Source of the DNA: Haliotis cracherodii | Taxonomy: Eukaryota | Reading direction: 5' to 3' | DNA: 64,000 bases | Assembly: GCF_022045235.1 (NCBI RefSeq) | Contig: NW_027266286.1 | Span: 29,512,001-29,576,000, forward strand | Part shown: positions 5,130 to 60,139 of the stretch, piece by piece | Numbering within the stretch: position 1 is the stretch's first letter | Layout of the letters: every line of letters starts with the position of its first letter | Made by a program: the position numbers and the translations under genes | Notes under the pieces: model-generated | The model's database searches: none | Seen by the model: the letters and a program-made list of their open reading frames with translations, nothing else | Told to the model about the DNA's origin: nothing

Positions 5130-6480
5130 GTCATATACTATGCGGCACTCGTGAAGAGCAACCTCCCCTTGGTGAGTGCTGGGTAACGCTAATAGCTCTT
5201 CCCCCATGTGGAACGGGGGAAGAATGTTTCCACAGCACCCCATTGCTGGTCGTAAAAGGCGACCGAATTGGGCAACCTGTTTGCCGTGGGTTGCGCCCCT
5301 GTGTCGGCGGAGGACGGGAGTCTGGTGGTTGAGGGCACTTTGCCCAATACACCACTTTGACCCTTACTTGGCCTAGACGGGTGGTAGAATGGGCCCGGTT
5401 CTATCAATCGGCTGGCCACGTCAAGCCCTGAGCACATATTGTGTTTCAACTGATTTGACTTTTGATTTAACTTTCCGACTTGGCCAAATTATATATGTAT
5501 CAAATCTTGAATTTTGATTGTTAATTGTTTCAATTGCCTAGAGTCGTATGCCCAGAAGGCGGTGGCTCATGGGCCAATCTGGTGGACTACATTAAGTTTT
5601 ACTTAATTTGTCTGCTTGAGTATACCATTCCAGTATCCTTGGTGCTGCCAGTTGGAGATCCACTGGCGTATAGCATTGTCCCTGTGATACTCCATGGTGG
5701 GTGGGGATCTGGGATGGTGAACCTTTTACAAATTCAAAATGGCACACCCAAAAAAACCAAACGTTCTTTGGAAGATTCCTCGGATGAGGAGACCACCATC
5801 CTAAAGTGTTCTTCTGGTAGTTGGGCTAGATTTTTAGTGGTTTCCGCCACTGATGGTACACCTTTGAAATTGAATCCTTTTGCAATTTCTAAGGCACTCT
5901 ATGGCATTGCTGGAGATGTCCAGGATGTCAAAAAAATCGATTGGGATTGCTGTTAGTTGAATGTAAGACTGAAAACAATCAACCACCTTACTAGCTGCCA
6001 AGCAATTAGTTGCCACTCCAGTTTTGATTTCACCACACAAAACTCTAAATTCCAGCAAAGGAATCATCAGAGATAGGAAACGTTGTCTCTCTGATATGTC
6101 AGAAATTGAAATAACTGATGAGCTTAAAGATCAAGGAGTTACTCACGTCAAACGCTTCACGTACAAGCGAGATGATAAAACCTTCAACTCCAATACTTAC
6201 CTGACGACATTTTCCAAGCCAACACGTCCAAAAAATATCAAAGCAGGATATTTTGACATCGAAGTGGATCAATATATTCCAAACCCACTTCGGTGTTACA
6301 AATGCCAGCAGTTCGGGCACGGTGCCCAATCTTGCAACCATCGCAAGATCTGTCATCAGTGTGGTGAAGATGACCACAATATGGAAACTAGGTGTACGAA
6401 AAACCCTCATTGTGCTAACTGCTCTGGTGATCATGTGGCATCCTCGAAATCCTGTCCTCAATTTAAAATTTCCGATATGA
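5130..6480 (+). mobile_element. 5' part of an I/Nimb-like non-LTR retrotransposon: 5'UTR plus frameshifted ORF1 (gag-like, CCHC zinc knuckles); ORF2 absent
   Basis: Segments W.RFLVV...LNPFAISKAL.GIAG, PHKTLNSSKGII, YIPNPLRCYKCQQFGH, C..CG...H and CANCSGDH.ASS..CP, spread over frameshifts near 5745 and 5940-5980. Confidence 0.85.
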
Positions 6481-6743
6481 ATGCTTTAATAAGTCTGGAT
6501 CAAGCAAGAGTCCACAAAATGGCCGCTGTATGAATTGCATTGAATATCATTGGCTGAACAAACATATATTACAGGAACACGAGTGCAGCCTAACTACCGA
6601 AATTTCGGTCTTTTGTAATGCAACCATTAGCCAAAAGTACATGATTCATTTTCTTTGGCTGACTGGCGTATAGTGAGTTCATGTACTCTTGAGTGAGTAA
6701 AGTCCACATGTCCAGTTTTTTCCACACATTTTTCTACGATGTT

Positions 6744-18522: not shown

Positions 18523-21040
18523 TGCCCCGGTCACACATTCACGGATCGTCTTGTCGGATCCACTACGGATGGAAACTCACGGATGACCCCGGAAAAGACT
18601 ATATCCGTGGTCCGCTACGGATGCACCACGGATTCAGTAGGGTATTTTACGGATCAACCAAGGATAATGCAGAAAATGAGCTACTTGACAACGGGGAGTG
18701 ATAGGGATTGATACGGTTCGGTACGGTTTGGTACGGTTTAGTACGGAATAACCGTGTCACGGCGTATGCACTGCGGATTAACAACGGTTCGCTACGATTG
18801 TAGTACGGGTTAGCACGAATTAGAACGGTCTGGCACGGATAAGTACGGACTCTAACGGAGCGCCACGGACCAGCCACGATAAGCAATCCGTATACATGAA
18901 TTCCCGCGCTCGCGTGTTCATTCCACAACTTCAAAATGCCACCACGAAAGAGAGGAGCAATGGTTTTTTTTCAATTTTTATTGTTCAAGAATATATTATG
19001 TTTCAATTTCACAAAGTTTAGAAATGAAGACAGAAATAAAAGGTTGATATTAACATTTGTAAATGATGTTAGTGTATGGTTTTTTTTACGTAAGTACAAA
19101 TAAAAACATATTCCAAAGTCCAATATTTTTAATAAAACATTATCTGTAAATATCCAACACAATTCGACCGTTCTGAAGGATGATCTTTTATACCATCCTG
19201 TTCTGGCACCGCCCCGACAGGTGAATTGACGTAGTGTTTAAGGTACAGCCTCTGCTGCATCGCTTTCAAGGTGTCTAAGTTGCCAGCCCTGGTGTTCTGC
19301 ACATCGTCCATGTTAACACCCTCTCTCCAGGCACCAGGGATGACGTTGTGGTTAACATCCTCTTGATCAGTGAGAGGGTTCTGTTCACCAGGATATCTGA
19401 CCCTCATGATGTTGTGAAGGCACACACAGGCGAGGACTGGGGGAGAGTAAACACCGGAATCTGTTTGCAAGGATACCAAATGCATTTACCACAACTCGTC
19501 TGACCCTCGAGAGGCGGTAGTTGAAGATCCTCTCGTCATTGGCAAGACCCCGTCTGGAGAAGGGCTTCGTGAGCCAGGTATTCATGCCAAATGCATTGTC
19601 TGCAATGATATAGTAAGACATCGGTCTGTCATCACCGGGAATGGGGGGCTGCTGCTGGGATGCCGATTACACCCCTTTCAATGGCGTTTTTCAGCTCACA
19701 CTGGTTCCAAATCTGAGCGTCGGAGCAACCACCTTGTGCACCAATATTCACCCACCGGAACTTGTAACCGGCGTCGACTAGGGCCATCAGAACTTTTGAG
19801 TGATATCCTTTATGTTGCAATTATAGTCTCGCATACGTCCCGAACAATACCAGAGATGGTATTGTGCGCCACCCTGAAGCCATACATCAAGGTCCGGTAG
19901 CTGTCCCCCGTAGCAAGGTAACGCTGTGTGACTGCTAGCCTCACTCCAGGTTCGATGGACTGTCTGTACCAGGTAATTTTCTTCATAATCATGCGACCCA
20001 CTACTTGTAACAGTTCTTGGAACATCTGTAGGTCTATTCTCACAAAGTTCTTGAAAGCAGCTGGATTTTCCACACTCAGTTCAGCCATGATAGCTTCATA
20101 CTGGCCGTGGATGGGTCGTGGGAGGAGCCAGTCCCTGGTCCACCATGTCTTCTGCCTCCGGTCACCTCTCAGTCTGCCCTCAAGCAGCTCCACCATGGCC
20201 CTGGCTTTTTGTGGCATATCAATGTCCTGGTCCAGCCAGTTCAGTGCCAGCCTCAGTTGTTGGTTGTTCATGTTGGTTGTTGTTAGATGTAGACTTCTTG
20301 GATGAAACAGATATGAAGTAGGGCCCTATAAACTGGAAGCCTGGTGACAGAACGGGGGTGACACCTAGATGACATAATCCGTAACATGGGCGGATAAAGA
20401 GGGGGCTGCGGGGGTGCGCACCCCCCTTTTTATTCCGAAATAAATCATTATTTCTGTATTAATTACCACCAAGACAATAAATAGATTTTAATTGTGCACC
20501 ACCCTTTTCCAAAAAGCTGTATCCGCCCATGCGTAATAAACTGTAGTGGACCGTAGTAAGCTGTATTATGCCGTACTGTCGCGTAGTAACCCGTAGGAAT
20601 CCTTGAGAAACCTTGGTAATCCCTACCTATCCCTAATAGAACGTAGTGCCATCGTGCTGGTCCGTGACAAATCCGTTACAAACCGTATTGTATCCTTGGC
20701 TAATCCGTGGGGTAACCGTACAAGTACGTAGTTCACCGTAACTAACCTTACCGATCCTTGGCGGCTTGAGTCCGGGGATGTACTACGAATTAGTACGGTT
20801 TATTACGGACTAAGACGGATAAGTACGTTCTAAAACGGATCAGTAAGGATGTACTACGGTTGTCTGATCCGTGGGGAATTTTGGAACATGCTCAAAAATT
20901 GTCACGGATATACAAGTACTACTACGATTGACCCAGGATACAATACGGACAGCTACGGACCACTACAGATTGCCACGAATGATGCCGGGTCGTATCCGTG
21001 GCTAATCCGGCGTCCGGTCCGTGAATGTGTGACCGGGGCA
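18523..21040 (-). mobile_element. PIF/Harbinger DNA transposon with decayed, internally deleted DDE transposase (~19130-20271, -)
   Basis: Perfect 23-bp TIR TGCCCCGGTCACACATTCACGGA and TSD TGA. Motifs RYLATGDSY, LMALVDA.YKF..V.IGA.G..SDA, IIADNAF and FNYRLSR.RRVV.NAFGILANRF lie in four broken ORFs. Confidence 0.93.
20385..20531. mobile_element. MITE nested in the Harbinger element, 5-bp TSD CGTAA
   Basis: CGTAA|CATGGGCGGATA...TATCCGCCCATG|CGTAA. Confidence 0.85.
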
Positions 21041-21921: not shown

Positions 21922-22035
21922 ATGCTACGGAAAATTACGAGCCGGTCAGTCAATATAGTCGTGCTACATCATCACGCAGAGTGGCCATGGCGGGTGCCGG
22001 TGACCAATTCTTCGAAGGAACAGAGAAACTGTTAG
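21922..22035 (+). promoter_or_regulatory. Candidate overlapping uORF (37 aa), out of frame with AMD1
   Basis: ATG at 21922 and TAG at 22033-22035, spanning the main ATG. Relevant only if transcription starts upstream of 21922. Confidence 0.35.
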
Positions 22036-22090
22036 AGGTGTGGTTTGCATCTTCCTGTGATGAAGAGTGCGATCTACGGACAGTTGCAAG
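21987..22090 (+). CDS. AMD1: AMD1 exon 1: MAGAGDQFFEGTEKLLEVWFASSCDEECDLRTVA(R)
   Basis: Strong Kozak GCCATGG, FEGxEKxLE motif, donor AG|GTGAAA, phase 2. Confidence 0.95.
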
Positions 22091-26392: not shown

Positions 26393-27615
26393 ACCTGGGT
26401 TGAATACTTCTAGGTCCCTGGTACTCAATGCCTGCTGCCAGGGTTGAATACTTCTAGGTCCCTGGTACTCAATGCCTGCTGCCAGGGTTGAATACTTCTA
26501 GGTCCCTGGTACTCAATGCCTGCTGCCATGGTTGAATAATTCTAGGTCCCTGGTACTCAATGCCTGCTTCCAGGGTTGAATACTTCTAGGTCCTTGGTAC
26601 TCAATGCCTGCTTCCAGGGTTGAATACTTCTAGGTCCCTGGTACTCAATGCCTGCTTCCAGGGTTGAATACTTCCAGGTCCCTGGTACTCAATGCCTGCT
26701 GCCAGGGTTGAATACTTCTAGGTCCCTGGTACTCAATGCCTGCTTCCAGGGTTGAATACTGCCAGGTCCCTGGTACTCGATGCCTGCTGCCAGGGTTGAA
26801 TACTTCTAGGTCCCTTGTACTCAATGCCTGCTACCAGGGTTGAATACTTCCAGGTCCCTGGTACTCAATGCCTGCTGCCAGGGTTGAATACTTCTAGGTC
26901 CCTGGTACTCAATGCCTGCTGCCAGGGTTGAATACTTCTAGGTCCCTGGTACTCAATGCCTGCTGCCAGGGTTGAATACTTCTAGGTCCCTGGTACTCAA
27001 TGCCTGCTGCCAGGGTTGAATACTTCTAGGTCCCTGGTACTCAATGCCTGCTGCCAGGGTTGAATACTTCTAGGTCCCTTGTACTCAATGCCTGCTGCCA
27101 GGGTTGAATACTTCTAGGTCCCTGGTACTCAATGCCTGCTGCCAGGGTTGAATACTTCTAGGTCCCTTGTACTCAATGCCTGCTGCCAGGGTTGAATACT
27201 TCTAGGTCCCTTGTACTCAATGCCTGCTGCCAGGGTTGAATACTTCTAGGTCCCTTGTACTCAATGCCTGCTTCCAGGGTTGAATACTTCCAGGTCTCTG
27301 GTACTCGATGCCTGCTGCCAGGGTTGAATACTTCCAGGTCCCTGGTACTCGATGCCTGCTGCCAGGGTTGAATACTTCTAGGTCCCTGGTACTCAATGCC
27401 TGCTGCCAGGGTTGAATACTTCCAGGTCCCTGGTACTCGATGCCTGCTGCCAGGGTTGAATACTTCCAGGTCCCTGGTACTCGATGCCTGCTGCCAGGGT
27501 TGAATACTTCTAGGTCCCTGGTACTCGATGCCTGCTGCCAGGGTTGAATACTTCTAGGTCCCTGGTACTCAATGCCTGCCACCAGGGTTGAATGCTTCTA
27601 GGTCCCTTGTACTCA
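26393..27615. repeat. Minisatellite, 44-bp unit CCAGGGTTGAATACTTCTAGGTCCCTGGTACTCAATGCCTGCTG, ~28 copies
   Basis: Direct tandem periodicity. Confidence 0.97.
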
Positions 27616-30622: not shown

Positions 30623-31753
30623 CATAGTCTACTTGTGCTGTGGGACATCATCTACTCATGTTATAGGACATATTCTACTCATGCTATAGGACATCATCTA
30701 CTCATGCTACAGGACACAGTCTAATCATGCTATTGGACAAAGTATACTCGTGCTATTGGACATAGTCTACTCGTGCTATAGGACAAATCTACTCATGCTA
30801 TAGGACATAGTCTACTCATGCTATAGGACATAGTCTACTGACGCTATAGGACATAGTCTACACATGCTTTTGGATAATATCTACTCATGCTATAGGACAC
30901 AGTCTACTCGTGCTATAGGACAAAGTCTACTCATGCTATTGGATATAATGTACTCATGCATAGTCTACTCATGCTATAGGACATAGTCTACTCGTGCTAT
31001 TGGACATAGTCTAATCGTGCTATTGGACATAGTCTAATCGTGCTATTGGACATAGTCTACTCGTGCTATAGGACATAGTCTACTCGTGCTATAGGACATA
31101 GTCTACTCCCGCTATTGGACATAGTCTACTCCCGCTATTGGATATAGTCTACTCATGCTATAGGACATAGTCTAATCGTGCTATTGGACATAGCATACTC
31201 GTGCTATTGGACATAGTCTAATCGTGCTATAGGACAAAGTCTACTCATGCTATAGGACACAGTCTACTCATGCTATAGGACATAGTCTACTCATGCTATT
31301 GGACATAGTCTAATCGTGCTATAGGACAAAGTCTACTCATGCTATAGGACACAGTCTACTCATGCTATAGGACATAGTCTAATCATGCTATAGGACATAG
31401 TCTACTCATGCTATAGGACATAGTCTACCCATGCTACAGGACATAGTCTAATCGTGCTATTGGACATAGTCTACTCGTGCTATAGGACATAGTCTACTCA
31501 TGCTATAGGACATAGTCTACTCCCGCTATTGGATATAGTCTACTCATGCTATTGGACATAGTCTACTCGTGCTATAGGACATAGTCTACTCATTCTATAG
31601 GATATAGTCTACTCATGCTATAGGACATAGTCTACCCATGCTACAGGACATAGTCTACTCATGCTATAGGACATAGTCTACTCATGCTATAGGACATAGT
31701 TTACTCGTGCTATCGGATATAGTCTACTCATGCTATTATACATAGTCTACTCA
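30623..31753. repeat. Minisatellite, 23-bp unit CTACTCATGCTATAGGACATAGT, ~49 copies, ending ~30 nt before exon 2
   Basis: Direct tandem periodicity. Confidence 0.97.
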
Positions 31754-31782: not shown

Positions 31783-31869
31783 GAAAGAATGGGAAGGCCT
31801 TCTCAAGCTCGTCCGATGTGAGATTATCAGCTGCATCTCGGATGAAGACATGGATGCGTATGTACTCAG
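31783..31869 (+). CDS. AMD1: AMD1 exon 2: (R)KEWEGLLKLVRCEIISCISDEDMDAYVL(S)
   Basis: Acceptor ttgtcag, donor AG|GTGAGA, 87 nt; matches the W..LL....C.IIS......AYVLS pattern. Confidence 0.95.
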
Positions 31870-34067: not shown

Positions 34068-34194
34068 CGAGAGCAGCATGTTTGTGACCAGAGACAGATT
34101 TATTCTGAAAACCTGTGGACGCACCACTCTACTGTTGGCCGTGAACCCACTCATCAAGATAGTGAAGGATAACTGTGGATTTGACAAAGTCATG
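34068..34194 (+). CDS. AMD1: AMD1 exon 3: (S)[42 protein letters not shown]; contains the E65/S66 autocleavage (pyruvoyl) site and the catalytic Cys of KTCG
   Basis: Acceptor cacacag, donor ATG|GTAAGT, 127 nt; ESS and ILKTCG motifs. Confidence 0.97.
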
Positions 34195-35214: not shown

Positions 35215-35289
35215 GATATCTTCTATTCTCGAAAGAATTTCTCTCGTCCAGAACTTCAACATGGAATTCATCGAAGTTTTGAAGATGAG
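35215..35289 (+). CDS. AMD1: AMD1 exon 4: DIFYSRKNFSRPELQHGIHRSFEDE
   Basis: Acceptor ttcttgcag, donor GAG|GTAACT; FYSRKNF..P..Q...HR.F..E motif. Confidence 0.95.
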
Positions 35290-35638
35290 GTAACTCTAGT
35301 ATTATTTGAAAACAGCCTTAAATGCCATAAATATGATTCCAATACTGACTATTAATTGCAGTTTTCACAGAATTTTGTTTCAAATCCCAAAAAGTGACAT
35401 TAAGAACTCACCATTATGCAAAAGTGCAATCCAAACACTGCTTTGGTGTATGAAAAATGGATTCCAAAAAGGAATCTGCATTTACCAAACTTAAAGGTTT
35501 TCCAGCTCAAATAGTGCTACTTGCCGTGCCTGACACATATAACACTCCAGATGGGGTCAGTTTGCTGAAAGTGCAGGAATGTTTTTGATGCAGACCACAT
35601 TAGTATCATCACCTGAAACATGCCTGTGATAAAGTTTA

Positions 35639-36148
35639 GTTGCGTCCCTTGGGCACGCCAGAAACCTATGATTGTGGGTTCGAATCCTGGTTCGACCCGA
35701 TTATGTTTCTAGGTTTGTCAGCACCATACCCGTGCTCGTGGGTTTCACCTGTGAGACCTGCATCACTTCGGGCTTTCCTCCCACATTAAGCTGACACGCC
35801 GCGATATAACTGAAATACTGTTAAAAGCGGCGTTAAACCCAACTCACTCACTCATTCACTCACTCACTCACTCAAGTTAAGTTGGAACAGTGCCCCAGTG
35901 GTCTAAGACACTGCAGTTCACTATGCAGAGTTGCCTCCCTTAGGTGTGAAAGCTATGATCAAGGGTTTGAATCTCGGTTCAATCAGATAACATTCAAAGT
36001 TTGTCAGCCCATGACAAGCTCGTCGGTTTCATCAAAGTGGTAACTGTCTGCGACCTGCATCACTTCAGACTGTCCACCAACACCAAGTTGACACGCCAGT
36101 ATTTCAATGAAATACTGTTCAATATGACAGTGAACCAAACTCACTCAA
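35639..36148 (+). mobile_element. Two tandem SINE family C copies (35639-35873 and ~35890-36148)
   Basis: B-box-like GGTTCGAATCC, shared body, AAAAGCGGCGTTAAAC-(ACTC)n tail. Confidence 0.85.
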
Positions 36149-36211
36149 ATTTAGAATACTAAATAGTTATTTACCTTCACATGGTTTTATGGACATGTGT
36201 TTGTCTTTCAG

Positions 36212-36239
36212 GTGACACATCTGGATAAGCTGTTTCCAA
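36212..36239 (+). CDS. AMD1: AMD1 exon 5 (28-nt microexon): VTHLDKLFP(N)
   Basis: Acceptor tctttcag, donor A|GTAAGT; supplies the V..L...FP segment and the phase needed to join exon 6. Confidence 0.88.
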
Positions 36240-42353: not shown

Positions 42354-42396
42354 ATGGAGCCGCCTACAGCTTGGGGAGAATCAATCGTGACTGTTG
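42354..42396 (+). CDS. AMD1: AMD1 exon 6: (N)GAAYSLGRINRDC(W)
   Basis: Acceptor tgttgtag, donor TG|GTATGT, 43 nt; NGAAY..GR.N.DCW motif. Confidence 0.93.
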
Positions 42397-42493: not shown

Positions 42494-45400
42494 GGGGAAC
42501 TGGTTGGGGAGAAGAACAAGCTGGTTGGGAGAGAGGAGCAAGCTGGTGGGGGAGGCGAACAAGCTGGTTGGGGGAAGGGGAACAAGCTGGGTGGGGGGAA
42601 GGGGAACAAGCTGGTTGGGGGAAGGGGAACAAGCTGGTGGGGGGAAGGGGAACAAGCTGGTGGGGGGAAGGGGAACAGGCTGGTTGGGGGAAGGGGAACA
42701 AGCTGGTTGGGGGAGAGGAACAAGCTGGTTGGGGGAGAGGAACAAGCTGGTTGGGGGAAGGGGAACAAGCTGGTTGGGGGAAGGGGAACAAGCTGGTGGG
42801 GGTAAGGGGAACAAGCTGGTTGGGGGAGAGGAACAAGCTGGTTGGGGGAGGCGAACAAGCTGGTTGGGGGAGAGGAACAAGCTGGTTGGGGAGAAGAACA
42901 AGCTGGTTGGGGGAAGGGGAACAAGCTGGTTGGGGGAAGGGGAACAAGCTGGTTGGGGGAAGGGGAACAGGCTGGTTGGGGGAGAGGAACAAGCTGGTGG
43001 GGGGAAGGGGAACAAGCTGGTGGGGGGAAGGGGAACAAGCTGGTTGGGGGAAGGGGAACAAGCTGGTTGGGGGAGAGGAACAAGCTGGTTGGGGGAGAGG
43101 AACAAGCTGGTTGGGGGAAGGGGAACAAGCTGGTTGGGGGAAGGGGAACAAGCTGGTGGGGGTAAGGGGAACAAGCTGGTTGGGGGAGAGGAACAAGCTG
43201 GTTGGGGGAGGCGAACAAGCTGGTTGGGGGAGAGGAACAAGCTGGTTGGGGAGAAGAACAAGCTGGTTGGGGGAAGGGGAACAAGCTGGTTGGGGGAAGG
43301 GGAACAAGCTGGTTGGGGGAAGGGGAACAAGCTGGTTGGGGGAAGGGGAACAAGCTGGTGGGGGTAAGGGGAACAAGCTGGTTGGGGGAGAGGAACAAGC
43401 TGGCGGGGGGAAGGGGAACAAGCTGGTTGGGGGAGAGGAACAAGCTGGTTGGGGAAGGGGAACAAGCTGGTTGGGGAAGGGGAACAAGCTGGTGGGGGGA
43501 GAGGAACAAGCTGTTTGGGGAGAAGAACAAGCTGGTGGGGGGAAGGGGAACAAGCTGGGTGGGGAGAGAGGAGCAAGCTGGTGGGGGGAGGCGAACAAGC
43601 TGGTTGGGCGAGAGGAACAAGCTGGTTGGGGGAGGCGAACAAACTGGTTGGGGGAGAGGAATAAGCTGGTGGGGGGAAGGGGAACAAGCTGGTTGGGGGA
43701 AGGGGAACAAGCTGGTTGGGGGAGAGGAACAAGCTGGTTGGGGGAGAGGAACAAGCTGGTGGGGGGAGAGGAACAAGCTGGTTGGGGGAGAGGAACAAGC
43801 TGGTTGGGGGAGAGGAACAAGCTGGTTGGGGGAGAAGAGCAAGCTGGTTGGGGGAAGGGGAACAAGCTGGTTGGGGGAAGGGGAACAGGCTGGTTGGGGG
43901 GAAGGGGAACAAGCTGGATGGGGGGAGAGGAACAAGCTGGTTGGGGGAGTGGAACAAGCTGGTTGGGGGAGAGGAACAAGCTGGTTGGGGGAGAAGAGCA
44001 AGCTGGTGGGGGGAAGGGGAACAAGCTGGTTGGGGGAAGGGGAACAAGCTGGTTGGGGGGAAGGGGAACAAGCTGGTTGGGGGGAAGGGGAACAAGCTGG
44101 TTGGGGGAAGGGGAACAAGCTGGTTGGGGGAAGGGGAACAAGCTGGTTGGGGGAAGGGGAACAAGCTGGTTGGGGGGAAGGGGAACAAGCTGGTTGGGGG
44201 AAGGGGAACAAGCTGGTTGGGGGAAGGGGAACAAGCTGGTTGGGGGGAAGGGGAACAAGCTGGTTGGGGGGAAGGGGAACAAGCTGGTTGGGGGGAAGGG
44301 GAACAAGCTGGTTGGGGGAAGGGGAACAAGCTGGTTGGGGGAAGGGGAACAAGCTGGTTGGGGGGAAGGGGAACAAGCTGGTTGGGGGAAGGGGAACAGG
44401 CTGGGTGGGGGGAAGGGGAACAAGCTGGTTGGGGGAAGGGGAACAAGCTGGGTGGGGGGAAGGGGAACAAGCTGGTTGGGGGAAGGGGAACAAGCTGGTT
44501 GGGGGAGAAGAGCAAGCTGGTTGGGGGAAGGGGAACAAGCTGGTTGGGGGAAGGGGAACAGGCTGGGTGGGGGGAAGGGGAACAAGCTGGTTGGGGGAGA
44601 AGAGCAAGCTGGTTGGGGGAAGGGGAACAAGCTGGTTGGGGGAAGGGGAACAGGCTGGGTGGGGGGAAGGGGAACAGGCTGGTTGGGGGGAAGGGGAACA
44701 GGCTGGTTGGGGGAAGGGGAACAAGCTGGTTGGGGGGAAGGGGAACAAGCTGGTTGGGGGAAGGGGAATGAGCTGGTTGGGGGGAAGGGGAACAAGCTGG
44801 GTGGGGGAAGGGGAACAAGCTGGTGGGGGAAAGGGAACAAGCTGGTTGGGGGGAAGGGGAACAGGCTGGTTGGGGGGAAGGGGAACAGGCTGGTTGGGGG
44901 GAAGGGGAACAGGCTGGTTGGGGGAAGGGGAACAAGCTGGTTGGGGGGAAGGGGAACAGGCTGGTTGGGGGAAGGGGAATGAGCTGGTTGGGGGGAAGGG
45001 GAACAAGCTGGGTGGGGGAAGGGGAACAAGCTGGTGGGGGAAGGGGAACAGGCTGGGTGGGGGGAAGGGGAACAAGCTGGTTGGGGGAAGGGGAACAAGC
45101 TGGTTGGGGGGAAGGGGAACAGGCTGGTTGGGGGGAAGGGGAACAGGCTGGTTGGGGGGAAGGGGAACAGGCTGGTTGGGGGAAGGGGAACAAGCTGGTT
45201 GGGGGAAGGGGAACAGGCTGGTTGGGGGAAGGGGAACAAGCTGGGTGGGGGAAGGGGAACAAGCTGGTGGGGGAAGGGGAACAGGCTGGTTGGGGGGAAG
45301 GGGAATGAGCTGGTTGGGGGAAGGGGAACAAGCTGGTTGGGGGAAGGGGAACAAGCTGGGTGGGGGAAGGGGAACAAGCTGGTGGGGGAAGGGGAACAAG

Positions 45401-46470
45401 CTGGTTGGGGGGAAGGGGAACAGGCTGGTTGGGGGGAAGGGGAACAGGCTGGTTGGGGGGAAGGGGAATGAGCTGGTTGGGGGAAGGGGAACAAGCTGGT
45501 TGGGGGGAAGGGGAACAAGCTGGTTGGGGGAAGGGGAACAGGCTGGGTGGGGGGAAGGGGAACAAGCTGGTTGGGGGAAGGGGAACAAGCTGGGTGGGGG
45601 GAAGGGGAACAAGCTGGTTGGGGGAAGGGGAACAAGCTGGTTGGGGGAGAAGAGCAAGCTGGTTGGGGGAAGGGGAACAAGCTGGTTGGGGGAAGGGGAA
45701 CAGGCTGGGTGGGGGGAAGGGGAACAAGCTGGTTGGGGGAGAAGAGCAAGCTGGTTGGGGGAAGGGGAACAAGCTGGTTGGGGAAGGGGAACAAGCTGGT
45801 TGGGGGAGAAGAGCAAGCTGGTTGGGGGGAAGGGGAACAAGCTGGTTGGGGGAAGGGGAACAGGCTGGGTGGGGGGAAGGGGAACAAGCTGGTTGGGGGA
45901 AGGGGAACAAGCTGGTTGGGGGGAAGGGGAACAAGCTGGTTGGGGGAAGGGGAACAGGCTGGTTGGGGGGAAGGGGAACAGGCTGGTTGGGGGGAAGGGG
46001 AACAGGCTGGTTGGGGGAAGGGGAACAAGCTGGTTGGGGGGAAGGGGAACAAGCTGGTTGGGGGAAGGGGAATGAGCTGGTTGGGGGGAAGGGGAACAAG
46101 CTGGGTGGGGGAAGGGGAACAAGCTGGTGGGGGAAAGGGAACAAGCTGGTTGGGGGGAAGGGGAACAGGCTGGTTGGGGGGAAGGGGAACAGGCTGGTTG
46201 GGGGGAAGGGGAACAGGCTGGTTGGGGGAAGGGGAATGAGCTGGTTGGGGGGAAGGGGAACAAGCTGGGTGGGGGAAGGGGAACAAGCTGGTGGGGGAAA
46301 GGGAACAAGCTGGTTGGGGGGAAGGGGAACAGGCTGGTTGGGGGGAAGGGGAACAGGCTGGTTGGGGGAAGGGGAATGAGCTGGTTGGGGGAAGGGGAAC
46401 AAGCTGGTTGGGGGGAAGGGGAACAAGCTGGTTGGGGGAAGGGGAACAAGTTGGTTGGGGGAAGAAGCTT
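42494..46470 (+). repeat. G-rich minisatellite, ~22-24-bp unit GGGGAACAAGCTGGTTGGGGGAA, ~4 kb, in AMD1 intron 6
   Basis: Direct periodicity; it explains all the long overlapping ORFs here. Confidence 0.97.
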
Positions 46471-48057: not shown

Positions 48058-48112
48058 GTACCTATACACACTGGATGAGGAAGGTGTTACTCGACCAGAT
48101 CAGACTTTTGAA
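48058..48112 (+). CDS. AMD1: AMD1 exon 7: (W)YLYTLDEEGVTRPDQTFE; ends at a U12 AT donor
   Basis: Acceptor cttgcag; WYLYTLD...PDQTFE; followed directly by ATATCCTTT. Confidence 0.92.
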
Positions 48113-49018
48113 ATATCCTTTAAGCCATAACTTCACAAGCAGGGAATATTGAAAAGAAGGGATGGTATTATAATATTGATGAGCACTTTACCAAGGCTGT
48201 AATTTGCCTGACATAAATAGGAAACCTTTGGGATCTTGTCTCCATCCAAATAGCCATTACGGCCTTGTTTACATCGAAATGGCCATTAGGACCTTGTTTA
48301 CATCGAAATAGCCATTAGGACCTTGTTTACATCGAAATAGCCATTAGGACCTTGTTTACATCGAAATAGCCATTGGGACCTTGTTTACATCGAAATAGCC
48401 ATTGGGACCTTGTTTACATCGAATTAGCCATTGGGGCCTTGTTTACATCGAAATAGTCATTGGGACCTTGTTTACATCGAAATAGCCATTCGGACCTTGT
48501 TTACATCGAAATAGCCATTGAGACCTTGTTTACATCGAAATAGCCATTGAGACCTTGTTTACATCGAAATAGCCATTGGGATCTTGTTTACATCGAAATA
48601 GCCATTGGGACCTTGTTTACATCGAATTAGCCATTGGGGCCTTGTTTACATCGAAATGGCCAATTGGGACCTTGTTTACAACGAATTAACCATTGGGGCC
48701 TTGTTTACATCGAAATGGCCATTGGGACCTTGTTTACATCAAAATAGCCATTGGGACCTTGTTTACATCGAAATAGCCATTGTGATATTGTTTATATCAA
48801 AATAGCCATTGGGATCTTGTTTACATCAAAATAGCCATTGGGATCTTGTTTTCATCCAGAAAGCTGTTAGGGCCTTTTTTCTGTCAAAATATCAACTGGG
48901 ACCTTGTGTTCATCTTAATAGCTGGAAGACCCTGATTAAGACAACAGTTCCAATATTCCCCTGAATAGTCCTTAGGTCCTGTATATCCCACCAATGTTTG
49001 TACCTTAACCACATCCAC
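48113..49018 (+). other. U12-type (minor spliceosome) AT-AC intron, AMD1 intron 7
   Basis: 5' ATATCCTTT at 48113, branch site TACCTTAAC at 49001-49009, 3' CCAC ending 49018. Splicing gives DQTFE|LLM, colinear with the family motif DQTLEILM. Confidence 0.92.
48228..48920. repeat. Minisatellite, 29-bp unit GCCATTGGGACCTTGTTTACATCGAAATA, ~23 copies, inside the U12 intron
   Basis: Direct tandem periodicity. Confidence 0.96.
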
Positions 49019-49099
49019 CTGCTCATGTGGGACATGTGCCCAGAGAAGATGAAGATATTTACAAAGGAGGTGTGCGTAGACGGACCCGAGGCTACAAAG
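49019..49099 (+). CDS. AMD1: AMD1 exon 8: LLMWDMCPEKMKIFTKEVCVDGPEATK
   Basis: AC acceptor, donor AAG|GTAGGT, 81 nt, phase 0-0. Confidence 0.9.
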
Positions 49100-50159
49100 G
49101 TAGGTCTGATCTTCTTCAGTCATACTAACCGAAGTGTCTACATCAGCAGTCCCAGTGCCTATCAAAGATCCGAACATCAGCAGCCTGCTGGGTAGTTCAG
49201 TGGTCTTAAAGTGCTGCAGTTAGCCATGCAGAGTTGCATCTCTTTGGATGTGCCGGGATCCTTGATTTTAGTTTGAACATAGAATTTAGCCAGATTGTGA
49301 TCTTTGGTTAGTTAGCACCATATCCCTGTTCATATGTTCGCCTTGGTGACAAACATCACAGTAAGTTGACATGCTGTGATCCAACAAATATGAATTGTGG
49401 ATACTGTACACTTGGCCAACATATTCAGATAACAATTTCATAGACCCCTGAAGATCCAGGCGAGAATAGGTCTTCAGCAACCCATGTTTGTCGTAGGAGG
49501 CTTGCTGACTTGGTTGATATATGTCATCATATCTCAATTGCATGGATCAATGCTCATGATATCAATCCATGGATTTTCTAGTCCAGCCCGGATTATCTAC
49601 AGACCGCTGGAATATTGCTGAGTGCAATGTTAAACAAGAAACAAACAATTTGATAACATGGTGTGTGTTTTTTTTATCGTATTATATTTCCCCCAAGGTA
49701 CCTACAAAATCCTTAATACCTGTAATATAATAGACTAGCTTATTCAGTCATGTTGGAGATTACACTATGAGATATATATGATGTTGTAGACACACATGCC
49801 CTTTACAGATATGCCATTATGGTGAACATGATGTGTGCATCTAAGCATGGCATGAATTGTTGGTTGACTTCCTCCAGAAAGAGCTTCCATACAGACTGTA
49901 ATTGCTTTTGCTTGTGTGGTAATCCCATGGCGGCCTGCCACAAGTGGACAGTGTATGAACCACTCAACGTTAACTCTAACAGGGACGCCGACATATTTCA
50001 CACTATTTACAAGGGTAGTTGGAGGCATCCATTGTCATCCTGCGAAGTCCATCTATGTGTTACTGAACTGATATTGCTGGAATACTGCTCTCAAAGGACA
50101 TAAAAGCACAATTCTCTTATACACTTATACAGTATTTAATTATATTTTTATTTAGATAA

Positions 50160-50865: not shown

Positions 50866-52528
50866 GCCATGCCTGTTTCTGCCCCTTCTGTGTCAAATAG
50901 GGAGGTACCATGTCTGTCTCAGTCCCCCTCTGTGTCAAATAGGGAGGTACCGTGTGTGTTTCAGCCCCCTCTGTGTCAAATAGGGAGGTATGATGTGTTT
51001 CAGTCCCCCTTTGTCAAATAGGGAGGTACCATGTGTGTTTCAGCCCCCTCTGTGTCAAATAGGGAGGTACCATGTTTGTTTCAGTCCCCCTTTGTCAAAT
51101 AGGGAGGTACCATGTGTGTTTCAGCCCTCCTGTGTCAAATAGGGAGGTACCATGTGTGTTTCAGTCCCCCTCTATGTCAAATAGGGAGGTCACATGTGTG
51201 TTTCAGCCCCCTCTGTGTCAAATAGGGAGGTACCATGTGTGTTTCAGACCCCCTTTGTCAAATAGGGAGGTACCGTGTGTGTTTCAGCCCCCTCTGTGTC
51301 AAATAGGGAGGTACCCTGTGTGTTTCAGTCCCCCTTTGTCAAATAGGGAGGTACCATGTGTGTTTCAGCCCTCCTGTGTCAAATAGGGAGGTACCATGTG
51401 TGTTTCAGTCCCCCTCTATGTCAAATAGGGAGGTCACATGTGTGTTTCAGCCCCCCTCTTTGTCAAATAGGGAGGTATGATGTGTTTCAGTCCCCCTTTG
51501 TCAAATAGGGAGGTACCATGTGTGTTTCAGCCCCCTCTGTGTCAAATAGGGAGGTACCATGTTTGTTTCAGTCCCCCTTTGTCAAATAGGGAGGTACCAT
51601 GTGTGTTTCAGCCCTCCTGTGTCAAATAGGGAGGTACCATGTGTGTTTCAGTCCCCCTCTATGTCAAATAGGGAGGTCACATGTGTGTTTCAGCCCCCTC
51701 TGTGTCAAATAGGGAGGTACCATGTGTGTTTCAGACCCCCTTTGTCAAATAGGGAGGTACCGTGTGTGTTTCAGCCCCCTCTGTGTCAAATAGGGAGGTA
51801 CCCTGTGTGTTTCAGTCCCCCTTTGTCAAATAGGGAGGTACCATGTGTGTTTCAGCCCCCTCTGTGTCAAATAGGGAGGTACCATGTGTGTTTCAGCCCC
51901 CTCTGTGTCAAATAGGGAGATACCATGTGTGTTTCAGTCCCCATTTGTCAAATAGGCAGGTACCATGTGTGTTTCAGCCCCCTCTGTGTCAAATAGGTAG
52001 GTACCATGTGTGTTTCAGACCCCCTTTGTCAAATAGGCAGGTACCATGTGTGTTTCAGCCCCCTTTGTGTCAAATAGGCAGGTACCATGTGTGTTTCAGC
52101 CCCCTTTGTGTCAAATAGGGAGGTACCATGTCTGTCTCAGTCCCCCTCTTTGTCAAATAGGGAGGTATGATGTGTTTCAGTCCCTCTTTGTCAAATAGGT
52201 AGGTACCATGTGTGTTTCAGCCCCTCTGTGTCAAATAGGGAGGTACCATGTGTGTTTCAGACCCCCTTTGTCAAATAGGGAGGTGCCATGCCTGTTTCAG
52301 TCCCCCTCTGTCAAATAGGGAGGTACCCTGTGTGTTTCAGTCCCCCTTTGTCAAATAGGGAGGTGCCATGCCTGTTTCAGTCCCCCTTTGTCAAATAGGG
52401 AGGTACCCTGTGTGTTTCAGTCCCCCTTTGTGTCAAATAGGCAGGTACCATGTCTGTCTCAGTCCCCCTCTGTGTCAAATAGGCAGGTACCATGTGTGTT
52501 TCAGTCCCCCTGTGTCAAATAGGAAGGT
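50866..52528. repeat. Minisatellite, ~40-42-bp unit GTCAAATAGGGAGGTACCATGTGTGTTTCAGCCCCCTCTGT, ~41 copies
   Basis: Direct periodicity; 487-bp higher-order duplication (51072 vs 51559). Confidence 0.96.
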
Positions 52529-53277: not shown

Positions 53278-53370
53278 AAATCTGGAATCTGTGATATAAT
53301 ACCAGGTGCCAAGATGGATGACTTCCTGTTTGACCCGTGTGGCTACTCAATGAATGGTCTTCTGGAAGGT
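53278..53370 (+). CDS. AMD1: AMD1 exon 9: [31 protein letters not shown]
   Basis: Acceptor tttttttcag, donor GGT|GTAAGT, 93 nt; [15 protein letters not shown] motif. Confidence 0.96.
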
Positions 53371-56300
53371 GTAAGTACTACCGACTTGACCTGATCTTAT
53401 AGAGGCTACACTGCCCTTGTGTAAGTACTACTGACTTGACCTGATGTTATAGAGGCTACACTGCCCTTGTGTAAGTACTACTGACTTGACCTGATCTTAT
53501 AGAGGCTACACTGGTCTTGTGTAAGTACTACCGACTTGACCTGATCTTATAGAGGCTACACTGCCCTTGTGTAAGTACTACTGACTTGACCTGATCTTAT
53601 AGAGGCTACACTGGGCTTGTGTAAGTACTACTGACTCTACCTGATCTTATAGAGGCTACACTGCCCTTGTGTAAGTACTACTGACTTGACCTGATCTTAT
53701 AGAGGCTACACTGCCCTTGTGTAAGTACTACCGACTTGACCTGATCTTATAGAGGCTACACTGGTCTTGTGTAAGTACTACTGACTTGACCTGATCTTAT
53801 AGAGGCTACACTGGTCTTGTGTAAGTACTACTGACTTGACCTGATGGTATAGAGGCTACACTGGGCTTGTGTAAGTACTACCGACTTGACCTGATCTTAT
53901 AAGGGCTACACTGGTCTTGTGTAAGTAATACTGACTTGACCTGATCTTATAGAGGCTACACTGGTCTTGTGTAAGTACTACTGACTTGACCTGATGGTAT
54001 AGAGGCTACACTGCCCTTGTGTAAGTACTACCGACTTGACCTGATCTTATAGAGGCTACACTGGTCTTGTGTAAGTACTACTGACTTGACCTGATCTTAT
54101 AGAGGCTACACTGGTCTTGTGTAAGTACTACCGACTTGACCTGATCTTATAGAGGCTACACTGGTCTTGTGTAAGTACTACCGACTTGACCTGATCTTAT
54201 AGAGGCTACACTGGTCTTGTGTATGTACTACCGACTTGACCTGATCTTATAGAGGCTACACTGGGCTTGTGTAAGTACTACCGACTTGACCTGATCTTAT
54301 AGAGGCTACACTGGTCTTGTGTATGTACTACCGACTTGACCTGATCTTATAGAGGCTACACTGCCCTTGTGTAAGTACTACCGACTTGACCTGATCTTAT
54401 AGAGGCTACACTGGGCTTGTGTAAGTACTACCGACTTGACCTGATCTTATAGAGGCTACACTGGGCTTGTGTAAGTACTACCGACTTGACCTGATCTTAT
54501 AAAGGCTACACTGGGCTTGTGTAAGTACTACTGACTTGACCTGATCTTATAGAGGCTACACTGCCCTTGTGTAAGTACTACCGACTTGACCTGATCTTAT
54601 AGAGGCTACACTGCCCTTGTGTAAGTACTACCGACTTGACCTGATCTTATAGAGGCTACACTGCCCTTGTGTAAGTACTACCGACTTGACCTGATCTTAT
54701 AGAGGCTACACTGGGCTTGTGTAAGTACTACCGACTTGACCTGATCTTATAGAGGCTACACTGCCCTTGTGTAAGTACTACTGACTTGACCTGATCTTAT
54801 AGAGGCTACACTGGGCTTGTGTAAGTACTACCGATTTGACCTGATCTTATAAAGGCTACACTGGGCTTGTGTAAGTACTACTGACTTGACCTGATCTTAT
54901 AGAGGCTACACTGCCCTTGTGTAAGTACTACCGACTTGACCTGATCTTATAGAGGCTACACTGGGCTTGTGTAAGTACTACCGACTTGACCTGATGGTAT
55001 AGAGGCTACACTGCCCTTGTGTAAGTACTACCGACTTGACCTGATCTTATAGAGGCTACACTGGTCTTGTGTAAGTACTACCGACTTGACCTGATGGTAT
55101 AGAGGCTACACTGCCCTTGTGTAAGTACTACCGACTTGACCTGATGGTATAGAGGCTACACTGCCCTTGTGTAAGTACTACCGACTTGACCTGATCTTAT
55201 AGAGGCTAAACTGGGCTTGTGTAAGTACTACTGACTTGACCTGATCTTATAGAGGCTACACTGCCCTTGTGTAAGTACTACCGACTTGACCTGATCTTAT
55301 AGAGGCTACACTGGGCTTGTGTAAGTACTACCGACTTGACCTGATCTTATAGAGGCTACACTGGGCTTGTGTAAGTACTACCGACTTGACCTGATCTTAT
55401 AAAGGCTACACTGGGCTTGTGTAAGTACTACTGACTTGACCTGATCTTATAGAGGCTACACTGCCCTTGTGTAAGTACTACCGACTTGACCTGATCTTAT
55501 AGAGGCTACACTGCCCTTGTGTAAGTACTACCGACTTGACCTGATCTTATAGAGGCTACACTGGGCTTGTGTAAGTACTACCGACTTGACCTGATCTTAT
55601 AGAGGCTACACTGCCCTTGTGTAAGTACTACCGACTTGACCTGATCTTATAGAGGCTACACTGGGCTTGTGTAAGTACTACCGACTTGACCTGATCTTAT
55701 AGAGGCTACACTGGGCTAGTGTAAGTACTACCGATTTGACCTGATCTTATAGAGGCTACACTGGGCTTGTGTAAGTACTACTGACTTGACCTGATCTTAT
55801 AGAGGCTACACTGCCCTTGTGTAAGTACTACCGACTTGACCTGATCTTATAGAGGCTACACTGGGCTTGTGTAAGTACTACCGACTTGACCTGATGGTAT
55901 AGAGGCTACACTGCCCTTGTGTAAGTACTACCGACTTGACCTGATCTTATAGAGGCTACACTGGTCTTGTGTAAGTACTACCGACTTGACCTGATGGTAT
56001 AGAGGCTACACTGCCCTTGTGTAAGTACTACCGACTTGACCTGATCTTATAGAGGCTAAACTGGGCTTGTGTAAGTACTACTGACTTGACCTGATCTTAT
56101 AGAGGCTACACTGCCCTTGTGTAAGTACTACCGACTTGACCTGATCTTATAGAGGCTACACTGGGCTTGTGTAAGTACTACTGACTTGACCTGATCTTAT
56201 AGAGGCTACACTGGGCTTGTGTAAGTACTACCGACTTAACCTGATCTTATAGAGGCTACACTGGCCTTGTGTAAGTACTACTGACTCTACCTGATCTTAT

Positions 56301-57695
56301 AGAGGCTACACTGCCCTTGTGTAAGTACTACCGACTTGACCTGATCTTATAGAGGCTACACTGGGCTTGTGTAAGTACTACCGACTTGACCTGATGGTAT
56401 AGAGGCTACACTGCCCTTGTGTAAGTACTACCGACTTGACCTGATGGTATAGAGGCTACACTGCCCTTGTGTAAGTACTACCGACTTGACCTGATGGTAT
56501 AGAGGCTACACTGCCCTTGTGTAAGTACTACCGACTTGACCTGATGGTATAGAGGCTACACTGGGCTTGTGCTAGTACAATTGACTTGACCTGATCTTAT
56601 AGAGGCTACACTGGTCTTGTGTAAGTACTACTGACTTGACCTGATGGTATAGAGGCTACACTGGTCTTGTGTAAGTACTACTGACTTGACCTGATGGTAT
56701 AGAGGCTACACTGGTCTTGTGTAAGTACTACTAACTTGACCTGAAGTTATTGAGGCTACACTGCCCTTGTGTAAGTACAACTGACTTGACCTGAAGTTAT
56801 TGAGGCTACACTGGTCTTGTGTAAGTACTACTGACTTGACCTGATGGTATAGAGGCTACACTGCCCTTGTGTAAGTACTACTGACTTGACCTGAAGTTAT
56901 TGAGGCTACACTGGGCTTGTGTAAGTACTACTGACTTGACCTGAAGTTATTGAGGCTACACTGGTCTTGTGTAAGTACTACTGACTTGACCTGATGGTAT
57001 AGAGGCTACACTGCCCTTGTGTAAGTACTACCGACTTGACCTGATGGTATAGAGGCTACACTGGTCTTGTGTAAGTACTACTGACTTGACCTGATCTTAT
57101 AGAGGCTACACTGCCCTTGTGTAAGTACTACCGACTTGACCTGATGGTATAGAGGCTACACTGGTCTTGTGTAAATACTACTGACTTGACCTGATCTTAT
57201 TGAGGCTACACTGGTCTTGTGTAAGTACTACTGACTTGACCTGATGGTGTAGAGGCTACACTGGTCTTGTGTAAATACTACTGACTTGACCTGATCTTAT
57301 TGAGGCTACACTGGTCTTGTGTAAGTACTACTGACTTGACCTGATCTTATAGAGGCTACGCTGGGCTTGTGTAAGTACTACCGACTTGACCTGATCTTAT
57401 AGAGGCTACACTGGGCTTGTGTAAGTACTACCGACTTGACCTGATCTTATAGAGGCTACACTGGGCTTGTGTAAGTACTACCGACTTGACCTGATCTTAT
57501 AGAGGCTACACTGGGCTTGTGTAAGTACTACTGACTTGACCTGATCTTATAGAGGCTACACTGCCCTTGTGTAAGTACTACCGACTTGACCTGATGGTAT
57601 AGAGGCTACACTGGGCTTGTGTAAGTACTACTGACTTGACCTGATCTTATAGAGGCTACACTTGGCTTGTGTAAATACTACTGACTTGACCTAAT
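53369..57695 (+). repeat. Minisatellite, exact 50-bp unit, ~86 copies, starting at the exon 9 splice donor
   Basis: Unit GTAAGTACTA(C/T)CGACTTGACCTGATCTTATAGAGGCTACACTG(CC/GT/GG)CTTGT, with CCGAC/CTGAC variants; no indels seen. Confidence 0.98.
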
Positions 57696-58574: not shown

Positions 58575-58649
58575 GGTTATTACATCACCATTCACGTGAC
58601 CCCTGAGCCTCACTGCAGCTATGTCAGCTTCGAGAGTAATGTGCCACAG
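58575..58649 (+). CDS. AMD1: AMD1 exon 10: GYYITIHVTPEPHCSYVSFESNVPQ
   Basis: Acceptor ccctacag, donor CAG|GTAGGA; TIHVTPE...SYVSFE motif. Confidence 0.97.
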
Positions 58650-59245
58650 GTAGGACATTCAGGAAGTACTCCGTGCAGTAACCATGGAAACTGGCACTGT
58701 GAAACTTTTTGTGAATGTGTTCTTTTCTTTCCATAATCACCAATACCCTGTACTGCATCTACAGAACACTGCTCTGCCGAACAGATTTTTTGTGAAAAGT
58801 GTCTTGAATTGCTGATATATTCTTTGTTTTATTTGCAAGGTGAAAAAATTTTCATACCAATTGGTGGAAAAATGTTACCAATTTTAACTGTTAAAGAACC
58901 AGGGTGTCATGATATCAGTTTATGTTGTATTATAAAGCTCTCGTGCAGATGTTTTCATGATGCCAAGGTCTGTTTTCAGATTAGTATAATTTGGGTAATT
59001 AGATATTAGATATTGATGATAATTTGTCTAGAAATGTTCATACATGCAGTAATGGAAGAAATTAATTCAACATCATCAGTCATTGTGTGGAAAACATTAC
59101 GCTCATAATATTTCCGGAAATATGACATTTCGTGTTTTGGAAGTATACAGATTACAATACATGTATATATATATATAGATATAGTTTTTGACGGTTGGTT
59201 AATTGTGTAGGGTTTCTGAGAAATATTGCATGGATGTATTTGCAG

Positions 59246-59326
59246 GAGACTTACCAGGACATGATCGAGAAGGTTCTCAGTGTCTTCAACCCTGGCAAGT
59301 TTCTTATGACCATATTCGCCAATAAG
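59246..59326 (+). CDS. AMD1: AMD1 exon 11: ETYQDMIEKVLSVFNPGKFLMTIFANK
   Basis: Acceptor tttgcag, donor AAG|GTAAGT; KV..VF.PGKF motif. Confidence 0.95.
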
Positions 59327-59752: not shown

Positions 59753-59890
59753 GCCTCCCTTGCCCGGAACTCCCACCGAGACCTGGAGAAGAAGGAGCAG
59801 ATGAAGGGCTACTTAGTCCAGGACCATCAGTACTGCCGCTTCAAGAACTACAATCTCACCTACTCCTTCTTCTCCCGCCCTGTCATTTAG
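59753..59890 (+). CDS. AMD1: AMD1 exon 12 coding part: ASLARNSHRDLEKKEQMKGYLVQDHQYCRFKNYNLTYSFFSRPVI*
   Basis: Acceptor tgttgcag; the G.....Q...F..YN.....F pattern of the AdoMetDC C-terminus; TAG at 59888-59890. Confidence 0.92.
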   Translation, partial: ASLARNSHRDLEKKEQMKGYLVQDHQYCRFKNYNLTYSFFSRPVI

Positions 59891-60139
59891 GAGAGAACGT
59901 GCAGGGGTCCCACCAGGCGCAGCGTTGTTGCTGATGCTGCACCTGGAACCTTGGTTTGTGTCTGCAAACCCACGGGACCTGACTGCACACGTCGTAGTTT
60001 CCTTCCCTTCATAGACTTTTGCCTCTCTATTGCTTTTGTACATATTGTGTTCGTTGTGCGTGTGTTTGTATGGAACTCTCGAAAGAACAGAAAGAAGCAC
60101 AAGATTTTGTGCGGGTACATCACCCGTACACCCAGATAA
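59891..60139 (+). other. 82-codon in-frame open tail after the AMD1 stop (candidate readthrough extension)
   Basis: No in-frame stop until TAA at 60137-60139. The ORF-track entry 59951..60139 is in the AMD1 frame. Translation is not demonstrated. Confidence 0.5.
59899..59988 (+). promoter_or_regulatory. Predicted three-way-junction RNA structure 8 nt after the stop codon
   Basis: Hand pairing: GTGCAG/CTGCAC, GGGTCCC/GGGACCT, CCAGGCGCAGCGTT/GATGCTGCACCTGG and GGTTTG/CAAACC. Confidence 0.6.

Follow-up and report, generated by a model that had tools for sequence, protein, structure and literature searches.

U12-type AT-AC introns of animals are characterized by an extended 5' splice site and a U12 branch site near the 3' end, are devoid of a polypyrimidine tract and can occur as lone minor introns among major ones at positions conserved across phyla (as outlined in parts of PMC3584512). 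A survey of more than 3000 genomes with intronIC reported a relative enrichment of minor introns in molluscs, arachnids and Acropora (Larue and Roy, 2023; PMC10639083, in the sections considered here). Within the polyamine pathway, spermine synthase (SMS), which catalyses the step next to that of AMD1, has minor introns in human and mouse (PMC6717393), and the described controls of mammalian AMD1, the MAGDIS upstream open reading frame and ribosome stalling at a C-tail reached by read-through, are translational and experimentally shown (PMC13025110, in part).

Intron 7 of AMD1 in the abalone Haliotis cracherodii, analysed here in a window of 64,000 nucleotides (contig NW_027266286.1, positions 29,512,001 to 29,576,000, the whole stretch of DNA under study), resembles the animal U12-type AT-AC introns in all of these respects, from the splice signals to the lone position among major introns and the conservation of that position across phyla. 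On the other hand, the intron differs from the usual minor intron by its phase 0, which is one of the rarer phases among minor introns (about 22%; PMC10639083), and by its host gene, as AMD1 does not appear in the human or mouse lists examined. The groups enriched in that survey are those in which the AMD1 intron occurs; its main text holds 0 occurrences of AMD1 or Haliotis, and orthologous introns may be rows in introns.info. No paper on a minor intron of AMD1, or of spermine synthase, was found in a literature search that covered few subscription papers. While the class is well known, AMD1 as one of its members was not found described in the literature searched, and the intron is real and very old. 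As animals commonly carry hundreds of minor introns, no principle is changed by the AMD1 intron as it stands, but the group of ancient animal genes with minor introns that human-centred lists overlook gains a metabolic member. With high confidence, intron 7 can be regarded as an AT-AC intron with full U12 signals that is likely a substrate of the minor spliceosome and likely descends from an ancestor shared by corals and bilaterians.

The abalone AMD1 gene and its AT-AC intron

A profile search of the abalone genome with SAM_decarbox (Pfam) yielded one locus with four matched exons, all inside the window. The AMD1 coding span (21987-59890, forward strand) comprises 12 exons with an open frame, exons 1-6 at 21987-22090, 31783-31869, 34068-34194, 35215-35289, 36212-36239 and 42354-42396, and exons 7-12 at 48058-48112, 49019-49099, 53278-53370, 58575-58649, 59246-59326 and 59753-59890. 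The 328-aa product, a SAM decarboxylase (AdoMetDC) proenzyme, matches PF01536, possesses the E-S-S cleavage motif and aligns over its full length to the human enzyme 1msv (E 6e-102). The spliced translation is identical to RefSeq XP_071112984.1 of H. cracherodii at 328/328 residues; three other Haliotis RefSeq AMD1 proteins differ at 4, 19 and 20 positions, and the junction DQTFE/LLMW is kept in all of them. Ten of the introns are GT-AG, and intron 7 alone (48113-49018, forward strand, 906 nt, phase 0) is AT-AC.

Exon 7 (48058-48112, 55 nt) encodes a segment ending in PDQTFE, with the nucleotide end ACTTTTGAA, while exon 8 (49019-49099, 81 nt, LLMWDM to EATK) starts with CTGCTCATG. The original prediction held that splicing restores DQTFE/LLM, and the frame joins exactly in this way, as does the RefSeq protein. 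The final codon of exon 7 is aligned to human Glu178, a putrescine-binding residue; the position of the junction right after this codon is probably incidental.

The U12-type 5' splice site ATATCCTTT (48113-48121, forward strand) fits the consensus RTATCCTTT, the U12-type branch site TACCTTAAC (49001-49009) ends 9 nt before the last intron base and departs from the consensus TCCTTAAC solely by A for T at the first position, and the terminal AC that forms the 3' splice site occupies 49017-49018. The predicted branch adenosine is 49007 or 49008, that is 11 or 10 nt ahead of the last intron base, which places intron 7 at the short end of the branch-to-3' end optimum of 11-13 nt given for U12-type introns in the relevant part of PMC3584512. 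A U-rich tract is missing, as the T fraction of the last 20 nt (0.28) is the lowest among the 11 introns of the gene (others 0.39-0.72); the pyrimidine fraction of the same 20 nt, 0.67, is not below that of the other introns. Donor, branch site, terminal AC and the missing polypyrimidine tract were thus all found where they had been predicted, and the signals together with the conserved boundaries support the assignment as a U12-type AT-AC intron. Counted over the window, the motifs occur at chance level (RTATCCTTT, 2 observed versus 1.37 expected) or not above it (CCTTRAC-N6-14-AC, 5 observed versus 8.94 expected). They matter nevertheless because donor, branch site and AC all sit on two boundaries fixed by protein homology, a coincidence of about 3e-9 by a post hoc estimate with an independent-base model. 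Two ACs closer to the branch site, in frame at 49009 and 49012, were rejected as 3' ends, since 1 and 4 nt to the branch adenosine are too short a distance and contig cover begins at 49019. About 70% of the intron is taken up by a minisatellite with a 29-nt unit in 21.7 copies (48228-48856).

Contigs of four sequencing runs from four studies were aligned to 48860-49700, three of the runs being probable RNA by predicted status. None of the three probable RNA runs (three studies) shows any depth over 48860-49004 or 49121-49178, and the bins at the two exon edges reach 0.516-0.519 and 0.275-0.276 of the exon 8 depth, which equals 15/29 and 8/29; contig cover therefore spans exactly 49019-49099. 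At the 3' end of the intron, the probable RNA runs consequently agree with the original prediction, with exon 8 covered end to end from exactly 49019 (3/3 runs). The fourth run, genome-sized and from a related organism, covers the acceptor region continuously, and among the 23 of 29 differences listed for its contig none falls in 48968-49074, where the branch site and the AC are located. Across the junction 48112/49019 no bridging read or contig was seen, and the donor-side boundary 48112/48113 is predicted from RefSeq identity and homologues. The 3' part of the stretch 48860-49700 contains a high-copy repeat.

That the real junction is instead a nearby GT-AG, or that exons 7/8 are skipped and the AT-AC ends are coincidental, has next to no probability. 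On paper, eleven GT/GC-AG pairs keep the frame, and skipping of exon 8 alone is equally in frame. However, all eleven pairs alter the length of the protein, by -33 to +18 residues, and none of them yields the conserved sequence, whereas skipping of exon 7 or of exons 7 and 8 results in a frameshift; moreover, exon 8 is covered by contigs over its whole length, with the cover setting in exactly at 49019. Both alternatives, which had been named as possible refutations, hence disagree with the conserved protein and with the contig cover.

The abalone genome encodes three of the corresponding snRNAs, with genes over the Rfam cut-off for U12 (2 matches, best 127 bits), U11 (3 matches, 105) and U6atac (2 matches, 91). 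By inspection, positions +4 to +9 of the donor are complementary to the 5' end of the genome's own U11 and to the AAAGGA box of its U6atac (six pairs each), and at the branch site CCTTA-C can base-pair with GUAAGG in its own U12 when one A is bulged (six pairs), all in the register expected. The free duplex energy with U6atac is lowest for intron 7 among the 11 introns (-6.4), while the energies with U11 (-5.2, intron 8 lower at -7.4) and with U12 (-5.0, seven other introns lower) do not discriminate. U11 and U12 would jointly recognise donor and branch site, U6atac would then replace U11 at the donor, and splicing would proceed, without a polypyrimidine tract, to the first AC that lies far enough from the branch adenosine (10-11 nt). 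Removal of intron 7 by the minor spliceosome is therefore the likely route as judged from sequence, and AMD1 expression likely needs this machinery because of the inferred recognition of the intron 7 signals by U11, U12 and U6atac. Although AT-AC introns removed by the major (U2) spliceosome exist (PMC1557818), such a route is very improbable for intron 7, since its donor is of the U12 consensus and not U1-type, a U12 branch site is present without a U-rich tract, and U12 donor and branch site are conserved in 28/28 resolvable loci of other animals.

Occurrence, age and loss of the intron

These loci were retrieved from metagenome contigs with a search pattern that joins the exon-end codons to RTATCCTT; the pattern finds only genes keeping the U12 donor and is for this reason uninformative on the frequency of loss. 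The scan recovered 40 loci, all AMD1-like upstream, and although G was permitted as first base, 40/40 begin the intron with AT. While 12 loci end before the next exon, the other 28 include it, and in each of these 28 resolvable loci an AC end is accompanied by a YYTTRAY branch site 8-12 nt upstream. The introns are 164-1182 nt long, with 18 distinct by sequence. Stony corals account for eight of the 40 loci, with Orbicella as the best named match, and over 40 residues one of these eight shares 95% identity with Oculina and Orbicella and 90% with Acropora. A further locus matches oribatid mites and another bivalves, neither of these two reaching the next exon, and 30 are spiralian-like, without assignment to a named phylum. 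Coral and worm-like loci share with abalone the codon boundary, the phase, the AT-AC subtype and the 81-nt downstream exon.

Public protein models carry traces of the same intron. Among 148 fetched proteins with DQTxE, four continue with I-S-F or I-S-L, the reading of ATATCCTT, and thus run into the donor, namely those of Pinctada imbricata (pearl oyster), Mytilus edulis (mussel), Nephila pilipes (spider) and Ixodes persulcatus (tick). The I. persulcatus model has 26 inserted residues with the end P-L-T-P-P-L-H, as would result from retention of a complete 78-nt intron that contains CCTTAAC as branch site and terminates in CAC. Erroneous public models of AMD1 from at least four species are thereby accounted for, and the expectation that annotators restricted to GT-AG mis-model the gene holds for these four, but not for the abalone models of RefSeq, which are right. 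In Saccostrea cucullata, isoform X2 (P0042, RefSeq) reads DQ-MCH-LLM for DQ-TVE-LLM, a 9-nt slide at both ends, and the final H of MCH would fit an intron ending in CAC. The bivalve AMD1 products P0004 (oyster-like, Logan), P0056 and P0060 (Mytilus) stop 10-14 residues past the end of exon 6; ending just upstream of the minor-intron exon, they possibly represent an unproductive isoform or an annotation error.

Because stony corals and worm-like loci as well as bivalves and chelicerates have the interruption at the same codon, the intron is ancestral and not lineage-specific, which decides between two options that the original prediction had left side by side. As regards the intron-position survey across metazoans that had been proposed along with it, the 40 metagenome loci, from several phyla, share with abalone the codon that precedes the AT donor. 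Most simply, corals and bilaterians would have received a single AMD1 minor intron from their shared ancestor, which would date it to before the split of these lineages. A gain in the abalone or mollusc lineage would agree with the absence of AMD1 from the human and mouse minor-intron lists, but is very unlikely in view of the same codon, phase, subtype and 81-nt downstream exon in coral and worm-like loci and of the read-through signatures in spider and tick, as it would need parallel gain at one codon in at least three phyla. The ancestral minor intron is not alone in its age, as the GT-AG introns 4 (35290-36211) and 10 (58650-59245) recur with unchanged codon positions in coral or worm-like loci and are thus equally old.

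In four gene calls a single exon passes through the intron 7 position and the reading runs out at the following intron, which indicates that the intron has been deleted in those lineages. Human and mouse AMD1 are absent from the minor-intron lists in the supplements of PMC6717393, which contain the controls PTEN, E2F1 and SMS, and AMD1 is equally absent from the supplement of PMC11347168, a human minor-intron gene table with Ensembl identifiers. AMD1 was also not found in the supplements of PMC7367187, PMC3291851 and PMC2831892, short files that maybe do not include the full intron lists. Absence from the human and mouse lists means that there is no listed minor intron, with which a converted intron would still be compatible. 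Presumably, human AMD1 has one continuous 145-nt exon at this position, and the alignment to the human structure 1msv implies 64+81=145 nt for the corresponding stretch; judged by human exon sizes, introns 4 and 10 of the abalone gene would be missing in human AMD1 too. Intron 7 has thus probably been lost on the human line. Where it persists, ordinary inheritance would be the most likely cause, and because conversion to the major type needs changes at both ends, an AT-AC intron tends to stay or to be deleted whole.

Intron retention and the polyamine pathway

Retention of intron 7 had been predicted to read ISFKP followed by TAA, and this premature stop is indeed present in frame at 48128-48130 (forward strand), giving a 178-aa product with four introns downstream. 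Unspliced AMD1 transcripts would accordingly stop near codon 179 and be degraded, presumably by NMD. On the acceptor side, the three probable RNA runs yielded no contig with intron 7 retained, although rare forms are lost in contigs, which carry no information on levels either.

The abalone spermine synthase gene was identified by its match to human 3c6k, and Spermine_synth (Pfam) is matched in the genome, while SpmSyn_N (Pfam) gave no match there. Two of its introns are U12-like as predicted from sequence. The first, of 137 nt (L067:861-997; G000:C16:3124861-3124997), follows TMVE, combines ATATCCTTG with GCCTTGAC and ends in frame with AT (AT-AT), as an AC two bases earlier would shift the frame. 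The second, of 505 nt (L067:3554-4058; G000:C16:3127554-3128058), is GT-AG and precedes the last exon, and its donor context AAT/GTATCCTT matches that of a listed human SMS minor intron in the same exon context (ATT/GTATCCTTT). The abalone gene consequently resembles human and mouse SMS (PMC6717393) by this GT-AG intron and carries a second one that starts with AT, and the parallel to AMD1 consists in the same pathway at the next step. SMS is, however, a different gene, whose minor introns persist in mammals, while for mammalian AMD1 this intron is not listed. In the fetched stretches of two spermidine-synthase-like loci, which these cover partially, no U12 donor was found at exon ends.

A selected regulatory valve, in which slow or condition-dependent minor splicing of intron 7 limits AMD1 mRNA, maybe with feedback from polyamines, appears doubtful, although several observations are consistent with it. 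The AT-AC state is kept in corals and protostomes, retention would abolish the protein, and, much as human SMS has two listed minor introns, spermine synthase of abalone contains two that are U12-like. Furthermore, polyamines shield SF3A/SF3B subunits from phosphorylation and change splicing in human cells (PMC12999471, in part), and SF3b also works in the minor spliceosome (PMC3584512, in part), but PMC12999471 has 0 mentions of U12, U11 or minor. A coral contig (L027) has intron 6 spliced and the AT-AC intron unspliced; as it keeps the following GT-AG intron too, it was rejected as a case of specific U12-intron retention, and it may represent partly spliced RNA or a chimeric assembly. The acceptor side is without an intron contig in 3/3 probable RNA runs, an argument weakened by the dropping out of rare forms. 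The loss of the intron in several lineages shows it to be dispensable there, the GT-AG introns 4 and 10 of the same gene are equally old, and minor-intron evolution is considered largely neutral, with functional biases explained by gene age (PMC10639083, in the sections considered). The proposal that the minor intron places polyamine synthesis under regulatory control has thus gained no supporting result, as no retained contig was found and the intron is lost elsewhere. Together with the SMS introns, the AMD1 intron offers a cheap test of a regulated valve versus neutral relics in one pathway.

In common with the MAGDIS and C-tail controls of mammals, intron 7 would restrict AMD1 output post-transcriptionally, but it would do so at splicing and as a proposal only, while those controls act in translation and are experimentally established. 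A still more far-reaching scenario, which we consider decidedly improbable, holds that early animals gated polyamine synthesis via the minor spliceosome at AMD1 and spermine synthase, that the intron is a polyamine-sensing valve and that vertebrates lost it after the MAGDIS uORF and C-tail stalling had taken over. As part of this joint scenario, the polyamine level would affect SF3b-dependent branch recognition and thereby AT-AC retention, which would lead to decay of AMD1 mRNA.

Further features of the AMD1 window

Beyond the AMD1 TAG, 82 stop-free in-frame codons follow (59891-60139) with a hydrophobic stretch and a basic cluster. This frame, spotted post hoc, has a chance of 0.013-0.027 by resampling; it was rejected as a C-tail of vertebrate type, as the K..R..FR spacing ahead of its stop is missing and no fetched protein matches. 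At the other end of the gene, an upstream ATG opens a 37-codon frame (21922-22035) that overlaps the AMD1 start out of frame, its place in the transcript being putative. Long minisatellites are located in six AMD1 introns (about 26400-27600, 30650-31750, 42500-46464, 48228-48856, 50867-52528 and 53370-57690), of which that of intron 9 starts at the donor and has a donor-like motif GTAAGTA in each repeat unit. Outside the gene, broken frames at 5525-6533 and 19129-20325 show by eye a resemblance to a retroelement with a gag-type zinc knuckle and to a Harbinger-type transposase.
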